A stretch of 32,000 bases of DNA from an uncultured archaeon. GTDB lineage: Archaea > Asgardarchaeota > Jordiarchaeia > Jordiarchaeales > Jordiarchaeaceae. Of this stretch, positions 25,772 through 31,311 are shown one piece after another. Position 1 is the first letter of the stretch. Each line of letters opens with the position of its first letter. The stretch lies in contig CAZECW010000196.1 of the NCBI GenBank assembly GCA_964510585.1, positions 23,685 to 55,684 on the forward strand. The letters are read 5' to 3'. The notes below the pieces were generated by a model. That model did no database searches, was not told the DNA's origin, and worked only from the letters and a program-made list of their open reading frames with translations. Both the position numbers and the translations under genes were made by a program.

Positions 25772-26236
25772 TTATTCAGAGATTTTATTCTTCTGTTCTT
25801 GGAGTTTATGTACTAGTTCTCTTACGGCAGATGATACTCCTACTCTACTATAAACTATTTTGTTTAAATCCTCCTCAAATTCTTCGTATGCCTTAACGTC
25901 TCCGTTCCATTCCTTTATTTTTTGGAGATACTTTCTCAGAAAGCTGACTTTAATTTCCCACAGTTTTTCAATAGCCTGCTTCTCGTCGTCTTCTTTGTCC
26001 AAACATGCTGAAAAAATTAGGTTTTCTGATGAAATACAAACAAATTTTTTCTTGCCCATCACTATGGATTCTACTCTTTCCTCTCCAAGTTTAGTTACAA
26101 ATGAGGAGACGGCGCTAAGGAATCCTGAAACTAGATCCTCATCTAGTTTCACGCTGTGATACTCCTTGTGGAAAAGACATATTCCACTTTTGAGTAGAAT
26201 CCAGACGTTGTGGATGGTCAAGTTTTCCCAACTCAC
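25772..26236 (-). CDS. Stand-alone longin-like (sedlin/AP-sigma-like) protein
   Basis: IHNVWILLKSGICLF...DEDLVSGFLSAVSSF...ESIVMG...LIF...DKEDD...F...Y...WNGDV..YEEFEEDL is the longin pattern common in Asgard archaea. Confidence 0.8.
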   Translation of the reverse strand: MSWENLTIHNVWILLKSGICLFHKEYHSVKLDEDLVSGFLSAVSSFVTKLGEERVESIVMGKKKFVCISSENLIFSACLDKEDDEKQAIEKLWEIKVSFLRKYLQKIKEWNGDVKAYEEFEEDLNKIVYSRVGVSSAVRELVHKLQEQKNKISE

Positions 26237-26378
26237 ATGCGATGTCTTTTGGTGGTATTGGTATTATTGCTGTGTCTTCTTGGGATTACTATGGTTAAAC
26301 TAGTATTAAAACGTTGCTATGCTACAAAATTAATAAATTATTAAGGGAATTTGTTGTTTTACGAAAAATACAAAAATT

Positions 26379-28083: not shown

Positions 28084-31000
28084 TTAAATTATTAGTATGG
28101 GCAAGTCCAGTTTGAAAAATTTCTTATTATTGTTCTCATCCAAGTAGAACAATATGGGTTGGTAGTTAACCATTCCTGTTTTGGTGGGTTTAATCTTTAT
28201 AGTTATTTTCTCTGTTTTCCCTTTTCCCAGAGTTTTTCCCTCAAGAGATATAGAAGTTATTTCACCGTAATCGCTTGTTTCTTCTACCTTTACTTTAAAA
28301 GCTGGTGGGTTAATGTTTTCGATTCTTTCTAGAGTTGCCGTTTTTACGCCAATGTTTGTTATCTCAAAGTTTACGGGGATTTCTTCATTCACATGAAAAA
28401 CTGCGTGGGCTATTGGATTTGCTGTGCGTAGGATAACGAAGGCATTTTCAGAAGCTTCTCTAGGTATTAGAAGTGTGTAACCCTCTCCTTCCTCCAAGGT
28501 TTTGGTTTTTCCAACCAAGCTCAGATATTCAGATAGATTCATTTTTCTTTTTATTTTATCCAGCTCTGAAGCTGCTTTTTGCCTCAAATAAATGTGCCCC
28601 GATTTCTGGAAGCTTTCAATAGCTTTACGGAAGCTTTTTTCAATCATTGGATAATAACTCGTTTTCGCTTCGTCCGTCATTTCCAGTCTTAACTTTGTGC
28701 TGTATCTGACTCCGTCCAGATAACTTTTCATTCCTTCCAAGTATTCCACATAACTATTTAGTCCTGTTTCTTGGAAGAATTTTTGTGATCTCTCAAAGTA
28801 GGTTGTTGCATTTATGTACTCCTGCATGGGGTCTTTTTCCGCTTCCATGCATCTGATTAGGCTTTCTAATCCATAGCAAAGATCCGAATAGGCCTTTGAT
28901 ATATTCCTCATTTTTTCATAAGTAAACAGGATTGAGCATTCTTGGAAAAGTTGTGCAGCAGACTGATAAGTCTTTAAATTGTTATCTAAATGGGCCTTCT
29001 CTAGTTCTAAAAGAGCTTCAATAAATTTGTTCATAGCGCCCATCTCTACCGAATCCATGAATACCTTTGCAGGTATTTTTTCTATTTTTTCCATTGCTGC
29101 TTTGTAATGTACTATCGCTGCTTCATGCTTGCCTTCCTTAGAGAAGATTAATCCACGCTCCATTTCCTCTCTAGCTTCTGCAAAATCTGCAAACATTCTT
29201 GCTATACTAATTCGGTTTGCATTTTCCAACCCTGGTTTTAAGAAGGATACGCTCTGGCGAAACATTTTGGCCGCTGAACTATATAGCTGCGCAGCCTTTT
29301 CACCCTCCTCAGCCATACTCACAGAGTCTGCTTCCAGAAGTCTAATTTTTGCAGCATAGAAATTGGCTTCATGTTCATACATTTTCGGGAAAAGAGGTAG
29401 CGCTTTCTCATAGTACCCTTTGGCAGTTACCCAGTCTTTTCTCTCAATATCCTTCGCTAATTCAATATTGTACATTGCACTTGCAAATTTAGCATTATCT
29501 CTCAGAGAGGGGCGATTTTCTGCGGCTTGTTCGTACTTTTTAGAGGCTTCCAAATAGTAGTCCGAAGCCATTTTATAGTTGCCCTTCCTGTCATCTAGTT
29601 CTGCCAGTTTACGCAGACAGAGAGCGCATAATTCAATCAAATTAACTTTGGTATAATATTTTGATGCATCCGCGAAGCTACTCTTAGCCTTCCTGTAGAA
29701 TTCTTCCTTCTCAGTAAGCTGCCACAAGTCTTCTTCTATAAGTCCGAGAAAGTAGGCGATGTTTGCTGTCCTTAAATCGTCCTCTCTTAATTTGTATAAT
29801 TCAATTGCATTTTCGGCTAAACTCTGAGCTTTTCTGAGGTTTTCAATTTTTTCTTGGTCACTTAATTCCACCTTTGAAAGAAAATAGCCTGCCTTACTTG
29901 CTATTCCATAAGCTATACTCCTCTCATTAACCTTTACCCCGTATTCAACCGCTCTCTCAGCATATCTAAATGCTCTTGAACGAAGATCCCTAATCTTTTC
30001 CAATTCTTCGGAAGATAATTCTTTACCCTCATCGATTTGAGAAGTCATCAATACATATTTGGCCATACTCTCATACAGCTTTGCGAGAAATCTGAAATCA
30101 CTTGGTAATTTTTTAACATACTCTAGCGCCTCACGGCCAAAAGACGCCCCTTCTCTCAAAACCTCCCTTTTAGGAACCTCACCCTGAATAAATTCTGCAT
30201 AATCTGCAATCACTCCCGGTATCTCTGCAAGCACCCTAGCAACATTACGGATTTCGCCTAATACCCTATAATGGTTAAGACTCTGCTTCAAACTTTCATA
30301 AGCAGATTTTAAAAGGGCTTCTTGCTCACTTCTATCTGTCACAACTTCCGCAAGTTCTTTGCCCGCCATAGCATGTATAAAGTATGTATCCGCTATTAGG
30401 GTCTGTTCTTTATTCTTAAGGAGGCTTGATAATGCTTGTTCTGCCTGCTTCTGGGAGGTTTTCAACAAACTGACCTTACTACTGATATTTTTAACAAGTA
30501 TAGACTGATTAAAATCAATCAGAGCCAAATTATAGCCTCTCCAACCCTCACAAATAGATAATTCCTCTGGTTGGGTTCTGGCCATTTCTTCACGTATATC
30601 TGCCAAAGCCCTTCTTTTAGCTTCATCCGATTCCGAAGATTCCAAAATCATGAATATTTTCGATGTATTAATCAAGAATGGAAAACAGAGTGCGGGTCTC
30701 TCTCTACGAGCATTTTGCAAAAATTTTTCCGAGTTACCAAAATTAATAATCGCACCACTCAGAATTTTTTCCCTCTCTCCCATATCAAAATGATCATAAT
30801 TTATAAGTTTTAACATACCCAACCAAAACTCAACTATTCCAGCCTTTTCCAACTGCTCATATTTTTGATAAATCTCAGAACATTTTTCCAACCCTTCAGC
30901 TATATCCAAAAACTTATTTTTCCTCTTGCTCAAATCCTGCTCCTCAAATAAGGATGCCAGCTCAGACAAAATAAGAGAACTATCAATAATTGCTCCCCTA

Positions 31001-31311
31001 ATATCTGGTTTAATCTCCTCCAATTCAAGCTTTATGAAAATTTTTCGAGTGGATTCCCAAAAATCCCTAGCCCTTTCTAATGAAATTTTAAAATCATCGA
31101 TGGTATCTTCTCTTCCCGACTGTAAAAGGCTGCAATGCCCCGCAAAAAAGTAAGATTCCGCCTCCATCAATTTATCCTTTAAGATAGAATATAGCTCACT
31201 TGCTTCCACATAATTTTTAACCGCGCCAATGTAGTTTCCTCTCTTTTCCAATTCATACGCCGCTGCAAAGGCTTTTTCCGCCCTTTCAACAGTAGGCTTT
31301 TTGCCGAACAA
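28084..31311 (-). CDS. 1075-aa alpha-solenoid/TPR protein with a C-terminal Ig-like beta-sandwich
   Basis: About 940 aa of helical repeats (A..Y..A...Y), then a beta-rich tail: VNEEIPVNFEITNIG...LGKGKTEKITIKIKPTKTG...QPILFYLD. Confidence 0.8.
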   Translation of the reverse strand: MFGKKPTVERAEKAFAAAYELEKRGNYIGAVKNYVEASELYSILKDKLMEAESYFFAGHCSLLQSGREDTIDDFKISLERARDFWESTRKIFIKLELEEIKPDIRGAIIDSSLILSELASLFEEQDLSKRKNKFLDIAEGLEKCSEIYQKYEQLEKAGIVEFWLGMLKLINYDHFDMGEREKILSGAIINFGNSEKFLQNARRERPALCFPFLINTSKIFMILESSESDEAKRRALADIREEMARTQPEELSICEGWRGYNLALIDFNQSILVKNISSKVSLLKTSQKQAEQALSSLLKNKEQTLIADTYFIHAMAGKELAEVVTDRSEQEALLKSAYESLKQSLNHYRVLGEIRNVARVLAEIPGVIADYAEFIQGEVPKREVLREGASFGREALEYVKKLPSDFRFLAKLYESMAKYVLMTSQIDEGKELSSEELEKIRDLRSRAFRYAERAVEYGVKVNERSIAYGIASKAGYFLSKVELSDQEKIENLRKAQSLAENAIELYKLREDDLRTANIAYFLGLIEEDLWQLTEKEEFYRKAKSSFADASKYYTKVNLIELCALCLRKLAELDDRKGNYKMASDYYLEASKKYEQAAENRPSLRDNAKFASAMYNIELAKDIERKDWVTAKGYYEKALPLFPKMYEHEANFYAAKIRLLEADSVSMAEEGEKAAQLYSSAAKMFRQSVSFLKPGLENANRISIARMFADFAEAREEMERGLIFSKEGKHEAAIVHYKAAMEKIEKIPAKVFMDSVEMGAMNKFIEALLELEKAHLDNNLKTYQSAAQLFQECSILFTYEKMRNISKAYSDLCYGLESLIRCMEAEKDPMQEYINATTYFERSQKFFQETGLNSYVEYLEGMKSYLDGVRYSTKLRLEMTDEAKTSYYPMIEKSFRKAIESFQKSGHIYLRQKAASELDKIKRKMNLSEYLSLVGKTKTLEEGEGYTLLIPREASENAFVILRTANPIAHAVFHVNEEIPVNFEITNIGVKTATLERIENINPPAFKVKVEETSDYGEITSISLEGKTLGKGKTEKITIKIKPTKTGMVNYQPILFYLDENNNKKFFKLDLPILII

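Follow-up and report, generated by a model that had tools for sequence, protein, structure and literature searches.

Gene layout, conservation and predicted solenoid–longin contact of a TPR gene module in Jordarchaeia

We analyzed a window of 32,000 nucleotides (nt) from an Asgard archaeal genome of 3.78 Mb (contig C196, positions 23685-55684; positions below are those of the window). It contains a cluster of four genes on the minus strand, which encode a large helical solenoid with an Ig-like end (P0004), a small stand-alone longin (P0003), an acidic tetratricopeptide repeat (TPR) protein (P0002) and a second longin (P0001). Longin proteins, roadblock proteins and small GTPases number dozens per genome in Asgard archaea and almost none has been matched to a partner (PMC10933270), a task made hard because their genes are seldom found in operons (PMC10933270). 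Here we describe a longin gene that has kept the same solenoid and TPR neighbours across two archaeal families, together with the predicted contact between the longin and the solenoid.

Gene layout and conservation of the module

The features of the locus are collected in Table 1. A first-pass annotation of this DNA had listed two stand-alone longin-like proteins, an acidic TPR protein and a solenoid of 1075 amino acids (aa) ending in an Ig-like sandwich; all four open reading frames (ORFs) were recovered at the coordinates it gave, with longins of 140 and 154 aa and a solenoid of the TPR type, and the 37 nt that it had counted from the end of the solenoid gene to the longin gene were also correct. 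The short spacer with its GAGGAG motif, an oligo-T run directly after the P0003 stop codon and the 420-nt gap that follows up to P0002 together make it likely that the cluster consists of three units, namely P0004 with P0003, P0002, and P0001. This layout suggests that P0004 and P0003 are carried on one transcript, and P0002, which has a GGAGGA motif of its own ahead of it, is probably driven by its own promoter.

Table 1. Features of the gene cluster and of its convergent neighbour, in window positions
Feature	Positions	Strand	Basis or remark
P0004, solenoid with C-terminal Ig-like domain, 1,075 aa, cytosolic	28084-31311	(-)	Start codon TTG; orthologs start at the same site
TPR superhelix, P0004 residues 8-933, 37 helices	28513-31290	(-)	DSSP on AlphaFold 2 model
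Predicted docking surface, P0004 residues 382-453	29953-30168	(-)	Complex model; invariant A389, R393, L396, Y450
Ig-like beta sandwich, P0004 residues 959-1074	28090-28437	(-)	Strands in AlphaFold 2 model
Spacer P0004/P0003, 37 nt	28047-28083	(-)	GAGGAG Shine-Dalgarno-like motif ~10 nt before longin ATG
P0003, stand-alone longin, 140 aa, conserved partner	27624-28046	(-)	ORF, fold model, profile
Long extra C-terminal helix of P0003, residues 102-139, predicted tether	27630-27743	(-)	Model; L128, L132 invariant
P0002, acidic TPR_12 protein, 274 aa, third conserved member	26379-27203	(-)	ORF, Pfam
P0001, second longin paralog, 154 aa, accessory	25772-26236	(-)	ORF, longin-family hidden Markov model
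S8-like membrane pseudo-protease, 1,414 aa, convergent	21351-25595	(+)	Pfam Peptidase_S8 5e-51
Conserved cytoplasmic tail of S8-like protein, residues 1345-1414	25383-25592	(+)	After single C-terminal transmembrane segment

Close homologues carry the labels Jordarchaeaceae, Freyarchaeota or Sigynarchaeota. Orthologs of P0004 are 58-94% identical within Jordarchaeaceae, and orthologs this close are confined to that lineage. A search of 301 Asgard genomes retrieved full-length P0004 orthologs from four of the five other genomes of the same family and from four of the five genomes of the sister family, Freyarchaeota, and none outside these two families. The Freyarchaeota proteins share 27-31% (solenoid; 29-32% in the search of the 301 genomes), 30-36% (longin) and 42-43% (TPR protein) identity with those of the window, and all four of their loci have the order solenoid, longin (at a gap of 0-5 nt) and a TPR protein of 275 aa. 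The TPR gene directly follows the longin gene in three of these loci and is separated from it by ~2.2 kb in the fourth. BLAST comparison of the window with the Freyarchaeota loci found these three genes and a convergent S8-like gene to be the only ones shared; neither the upstream threonine-biosynthesis genes nor the ABC operon has a counterpart there. The ABC-2 operon, which stands beside the S8-like gene in the window and was considered as a part of the module, was rejected on this ground, as it is not kept beside the block in Freyarchaeota. Related genomes thus side with the first-pass annotation, which had read the cluster as one system, in that the order of solenoid, longin and TPR protein is kept while the other flanks differ, and the core of the module is these three genes.

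The second longin, which had been counted among the members of that system, did not fare as well. P0001 occurs at this position in only part of one genus (present in G056, G082, G028 and L009, absent there in G038, L010, L011 and all Freyarchaeota loci), and this patchy occurrence marks it as an accessory and recent addition. It belongs to the same longin family as P0003 (hidden Markov model (HMM) E 3e-16) and to a different subgroup, its nearest relatives being dispersed paralogs on contigs C173, C20 and C99.

None of the four proteins contains a transmembrane-like segment. PADLOC and NCBIfam returned nothing specific for any of them, and an Rfam search of positions 25000-32000 gave no match. 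This stretch, or a strain ~93-95% identical to it with the same four-gene layout, is present in hot-spring metagenomes from several studies, and one metagenome DNA contig covers positions 25781-30667. Two runs labelled metatranscriptomic also hold a ~93-95% identical strain; their coverage is even and extends over intergenic DNA, as it does in the DNA runs of that study. A single contig reaches from the longin gene into the end of the solenoid gene, and it may be DNA.

Folds of the module proteins and the predicted solenoid–longin contact

The AlphaFold 2 (AF2) model of P0003 (predicted local distance difference test (pLDDT) 82.7) has a five-stranded sheet and elements in the order b-b-a-b-b-b-a-a (E2-9, E14-19, H30-44, E50-53, E56-63, E66-72, H79-92 and H102-139). 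When this model was searched against the PDB with Foldseek, the best 50 matches were all longin-type or roadblock-platform chains, led by TRAPPC1 (7b6d_C; template modelling (TM) score 0.64, E 3.9e-6) and including AP-3 mu, zeta-COP, Fuzzy, AP sigma and Mon1/Ccz1. A profile of 22 sequences of the P0003 family likewise matched the delta-COP longin (1.8e-6) and TRAPPC1 (Bet5, 3e-4) in the PDB. Pfam matches of the longin proteins stayed below the gathering score (Clat_adaptor_s 0.011, Longin 0.014, Fuz_longin_1 0.022, Sybindin 0.07), and neither P0003 nor P0001, at 140-154 aa, has a domain besides the longin. Judged by its modelled fold, P0003 is a genuine member of the longin superfamily, closest to TRAPPC1 and to the small or medium subunits of AP/COPI, which agrees with what had been expected of the small protein.

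In the AF2 model of P0004 (pLDDT 87.4), 37 helices span residues 8-933 and are followed by a low-confidence linker (931-952) and a beta sandwich (959-1074). Its best match in VIA-align was the TPR domain of LGN (Z 21.5, root mean square deviation 2.5 A over 321 residues, model residues 252-644), followed in that list by Rap/NprR, APC subunits, OGT and KLC, and Foldseek returned Ctr9, IFT139, Ski3, Integrator subunits and LGN. Pfam searches at E up to 0.1 found TPR_12, SNAP and TPR_1 only, with no Adaptin_N, and the P0004 profile matched Sec17 at E 0.067 only. TRAPPC8-11, adaptins and the large subunits of COPI are absent from the best 50 rows of Foldseek and of VIA-align, which mostly span P0004 residues 71-657. 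P0004 had been compared with the large subunits TRAPPC8-11 and with adaptins, and this homology is not supported, given its canonical TPR superhelix, the matches to LGN, Ctr9, IFT139 and Ski3, and its membership of a family centred on Bathyarchaeia (below). Its best structural hits are of the generic TPR/CARDB kind, an outcome that the first-pass annotation had itself named as refuting its proposal. For the Ig-like end all Pfam matches were sub-threshold (HYDIN/VesB Ig 2.7e-4, ASH 2.5e-3, DUF11, CARDB and TRAP_beta), and a profile of 19 such C-terminal domains had a single match in the PDB, a beta-galactosidase accessory domain at 0.0018. Language-model features placed this domain with CARDB-type clusters at 0.85-0.90, which is a lead only.

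Searching 1.84 billion representatives with a P0004 profile retrieved 705 relatives, 207 of them at E < 1e-30; the latter are mostly ~1,100 aa long and matched through the Ig-like C-terminus. The named relatives are mostly from Bathyarchaeota, often several per genome, and the family exceeds 950 members, of which the ~1,100-aa Bathyarchaeia-type proteins go under the name 'tetratricopeptide repeat protein' in databases or are listed there as hypothetical. Alignment of the P0004 family with the Bathyarchaeia family by hhalign gave a probability of 100% (E 1.2e-66) over 1020 columns, with columns 9-1073 on 7-1089 and a profile identity of ~19%. These profile comparisons indicate that P0004 is a full-length, diverged member of a ~1,100-aa TPR and Ig family centred on Bathyarchaeia, with which it shares length, the Ig-like end and collinear homology throughout, and from which it differs in having a docking motif (see below) and a longin neighbour. 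In seven Bathyarchaeia-type loci of the family that were examined, no longin or small TPR gene was found within 5-6 kb. Given so broad a family without longin neighbours in the loci examined, the solenoid and Ig architecture is older and broader than its link to a longin, and it is not eukaryote-like. Some of the Bathyarchaeia-type members bear an extra AAA (PF00004) or KaiC-type (PF06745) domain.

A set of Asgard relatives of ~1,277 aa (families f9, f7 and f21) was considered as orthologs of P0004 and rejected, since they match residues ~390-925 only and have a CN_hydrolase domain in place of the Ig-like end. In six loci of this family no longin was found within 5-6 kb. These TPR and CN_hydrolase (nitrilase-like) proteins often occur as two or three tandem paralogs (L036-L041).

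Complex prediction was carried out with P0004 residues 1-860 (residues 861-1075 were left out) and P0003, both supplied as alignments. The median score of the pair was 0.62 (runs of 0.00, 0.62 and 0.70), while the best of three controls, which used unrelated partners and an unrelated scaffold and all scored 0.00, gave 0.00; among solved complexes 58 of 80 attain a score of 0.62, among mismatched pairs 2 of 110. Contact agreement between runs was at least 0% and the pLDDT of the partner at least 71. In the predicted interface, residues 118-140 of the P0003 tail helix lie on P0004 residues 382-453, and the invariant residues L128 and L132 of P0003 fall within it. On the P0004 side the interface is unusually conserved, just 6 of 1004 slid residue sets equalling it. 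Its docking motif, G-A-x-x-x-R-E-A-L, is absent from the consensus of the Bathyarchaeia family, which fits a binding site gained in the clade of Jordarchaeaceae and Freyarchaeota. The contact between solenoid and longin proposed at first pass therefore stands above its controls (0.62 against 0.00), and the model supports, short of showing it, that P0004 binds P0003.

The predicted docking segment falls within the part of P0004 that superposes on the TPR domain of LGN, a domain that holds partner peptides and helices in its groove. LGN (GPSM2/Pins, with the ligands NuMA, Inscuteable and Frmpd) resembles P0004 in having a helix or peptide ligand on a TPR surface, as predicted here for the longin tail. 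However, the two are only 13-15% identical in sequence, and P0004 lacks GoLoco motifs, is three times longer and has an Ig-like end. Their similarity may reflect generic TPR_12 geometry.

The third core protein, P0002, is also a TPR protein (TPR_12 4.8e-30, 104 bits; isoelectric point 4.58). It matches SNAP (PF14938) at 47 bits, and its family profile found consensus TPR, LGN/Pins (~1e-18), KLC and Rap among the 60 PDB matches listed. Two other identities were rejected: that of alpha-SNAP/Sec17, because TPR_12 outscores SNAP and no SNAP or Sec17 is among those 60 matches, and that of a duplicated piece of P0004, because the similarity between the two is of the generic TPR kind only. The C-terminus of P0002 (26379-26450) is a strictly conserved basic tail, W-D-L-P-K-T-S-R-R-R-I-R-N-L-L, in which W253, D254, L255, R260 and R261 are invariant across Jordarchaeaceae and Freyarchaeota; this tail is a candidate for a docking peptide or for a helix that binds membranes.

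Longin paralogs and a possible GTPase platform

In order to place P0003 among its relatives, we turned to the longins of the source genome, in which HMM searches found 24 paralogs of the P0003 family. Four of the 24 are fused N-terminally to Ras-like domains in proteins of ~300-345 aa (C118:13147-14145, C27:843-1874, C27:6335-7249 and C81:258-1169), and a further three, which stand alone, adjoin Ras-like genes (on C117, C188 and C193). In total 7/24 are thus fused to or beside Ras-like GTPases, compared with an estimated ~0.8 expected by chance within 2.5 kb, in an organism with ~24 Ras-superfamily GTPases. Longin-GTPase fusions have been published in Asgard archaea (PMC10933270; 10.1101/2020.10.19.343400), and the longins known there as eukaryotic signature proteins belong to the same superfamily and come from the same phylum as P0003, the longin-Ras fusions being present in this genome as well. 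A longin paired with a TPR solenoid is described in neither of these papers, the word TPR being absent from PMC10933270 altogether, and in the literature searched we found Asgard longins and longin-GTPase fusions but no operon of a longin and a TPR solenoid.

We favour, at somewhat better than even probability, the view that the three genes form a lineage-specific cytosolic scaffold module of Jordarchaeia (Jordarchaeaceae and Freyarchaeota), in which a TPR solenoid carries a tethered longin as a GTPase platform. A TPR superhelix of ~1,075 residues with an Ig-like end, diverged from the Bathyarchaeia-rich family, would have gained a dedicated longin partner, and the C-terminal amphipathic helix of P0003 would pack on the clade-specific conserved surface at P0004 residues 382-453. 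With docking confined to the tail helix, the longin core would stay exposed, and it would most likely act as a binding or regulatory platform, of guanine nucleotide exchange factor, GTPase-activating protein or effector type, for one of the ~24 Ras-superfamily GTPases. The TPR grooves might recruit further ligands, one candidate being the cytoplasmic tail of the S8-like protein. If the complex is real, the chances of such a GTPase-binding or regulatory role for the tethered longin, argued by analogy with its family, are about even. The longin has a fixed, co-encoded partner and an interface predicted at residue level, a concrete pair that could serve as bait for the cognate GTPase.

Several observations weigh against this scaffold and platform. 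In the complex prediction, which covered P0004 up to residue 860, one run out of three ended at 0.00, and the runs have no contacts in common. The interface score and the conservation of the interface are not fully independent, because the predictor used the same alignment, and on the P0003 side, where 45 of 118 slid sets match its conservation, the interface does not stand out from the remainder of the protein. The five Jordarchaeaceae and Freyarchaeota genomes checked have no Ras-like GTPase gene within ~29 kb of the module, and the window has none near it, so that the GTPase role is argued from family analogy only; PMC10933270 reports that the GTPase genes of Asgard archaea as a rule do not share an operon with longin genes, which fits their absence here. 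Paralogs of the longin family are also fused to winged helix-turn-helix (wHTH), CARF-HEPN and coiled-coil regions, which indicates that the longin fold is used beyond GTPases. Finally, the S8-like protein and its tail are kept in Asgard lineages in which the genomes searched have no solenoid-Ig ortholog, and the tail therefore does not need the module.

The genes could also be neighbours only, with P0004 acting as a general TPR scaffold or chaperone and the longin elsewhere, and with a gene order inherited without any complex. Relatives of P0004 do function without a longin neighbour, predictors readily place amphipathic helices on TPR surfaces, and the run at 0.00 is what mere adjacency would allow. 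However, with protein identity down to ~30% and the other flanks reshuffled, the spacing has stayed at 0-37 nt, a clade-specific invariant patch coincides with the predicted interface, and every control, whether with an unrelated partner or with an unrelated scaffold, came out at 0.00; we consider such inheritance without a complex rather unlikely.

The S8-like neighbour and comparison with trafficking complexes

The S8-like gene is convergent with the module and encodes a protein with a transmembrane-like window near residue 1319. It is 38-44% identical to its Freyarchaeota orthologs, adjoins the module there too and is the sole non-module gene so kept. In the aligned orthologs of both families the Asp and His of the catalytic site are retained and Ala stands in place of the catalytic Ser. 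The tail of ~70 residues, with 33 positions invariant across the two families, is the most conserved stretch of the 1,414-aa protein, and on this pattern it is an attractive candidate for the ligand of a TPR groove. S8-like orthologs of ~1,465 aa are present in many Asgard families, 203 of the 301 genomes matching the C-terminal 455 residues, and the motif of the tail, I-P-E-L-D ... N ... D ... K ... G, can be made out throughout Asgard. The module was not nearby in any of 14 Asgard S8-like loci examined (L064-L077).

These data bear on the idea that the S8-like pseudo-protease has the module as its partner in the cytoplasm, the TPR grooves of P0002 or P0004 binding the tail so as to relay extracellular binding inward or to sort or anchor the membrane protein. 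Binding of helical or extended tails is common among TPR domains, no gene outside the module except the S8-like one is adjacent to it in both families, and the S8-like tail is the best conserved part of its protein. But orthologs with the tail motif occur in many Asgard families with the module absent nearby in all 14 loci, the genomes searched outside the order yielded no full-length P0004 ortholog, and convergent genes are not co-transcribed; we regard the link as weak and this partnership as unlikely. Quite improbable, in our estimate, is that the module is an independent Jordarchaeia analogue of an adaptor, in which the solenoid with an appendage-like Ig domain, a GTPase-reading longin and a TPR-held S8-like tail would provide a GTPase-gated link to membrane cargo or receptors. 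If true, it would be a functional analogue of the AP/COPI cargo adaptors made of prokaryote-type parts.

The first-pass annotation had proposed a longin-solenoid complex ancestral or analogous to TRAPP or AP/COPI. Part of this stands, in that a conserved module of longin and solenoid, with the TPR protein, and a predicted contact exist; an ancestral relation of the large subunit is not supported. The longin subunits of TRAPP and AP/COPI share the b-b-a-b-b-b-a-a fold with P0003, which is likewise a small stand-alone protein predicted to sit on a large helical-repeat protein. Here, however, the partner is a TPR superhelix, whereas it is a HEAT-type trunk in AP/COPI and a TRAPPC8-11 subunit in TRAPP. 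In AP/COPI the longin core is embedded in the trunk, whereas the contact predicted here, in a model of P0004 residues 1-860, involves the extra C-terminal helix only. TRAPP has Bet3-family subunits (TRAPPC3/5/6) flanking its longin pair, and the module has none; no Bet3, TRAPP or V4R family match was found by Pfam at E up to 0.1 in the module genes or the conserved neighbours. The AP/COPI medium subunit combines a longin with a mu-homology domain, and the module has no mu-homology subunit. The module is neither a TRAPP nor an AP/COPI complex.

That it is nevertheless an archaeal counterpart or ancestor of either, with the solenoid and Ig domain as TRAPPC8-11 or as adaptin trunk and appendage and the longins as TRAPPC1/2/4 or sigma/zeta, is very improbable: the nearest structures of P0003 (TRAPPC1 at TM 0.64, AP-3 mu, zeta-COP and AP sigma), its best profiles (delta-COP and Bet5/TRAPPC1), the similar parts list of solenoid, beta sandwich and small longin, the weak sub-threshold ASH match of the Ig domain (2.5e-3) and the complex score of 0.62 against a best control of 0.00 speak for it, but P0004 is of the TPR type in its best matches (LGN, Rap/NprR, APC subunits, OGT, Ctr9, IFT139 and Ski3) and in Pfam (TPR and SNAP families only at E up to 0.1), aligns collinearly along 1020 columns to a mostly Bathyarchaeia family of > 950 proteins that is longin-free in the loci examined, has full-length orthologs in two families only (8/10 of the other genomes searched there), is predicted to hold its longin by a tail-helix tether and not by a trunk-buried core, and is accompanied by no Bet3/V4R-type gene or mu-homology subunit. 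The eukaryote-like list of longin, solenoid and Ig domain is here built from an ordinary archaeal TPR family abundant in Bathyarchaeia, and such parts lists alone do not indicate TRAPP or adaptor ancestry.

Other longin fusions were seen in this lineage. In relatives, longin domains are fused to winged-helix DNA-binding regions (L009:2614-3246, L010:2547-3257 and L011:2498-3253); one such gene, of 210 aa, lies ~5 kb upstream of the solenoid there, at a distance that is beyond the end of the present contig. The source genome has a further longin-winged-helix fusion (C76:44088-44948, locus L081). It also encodes a protein of 563 aa (C210:311-2002, locus L079) with an N-terminal match to the longin family (E 1.7e-9) followed by CARF, 6H and HEPN regions of the Csm6 type (Cas_Cas02710 1.7e-20), a protein that may combine a CRISPR-ancillary RNase with a longin-like sensor head.

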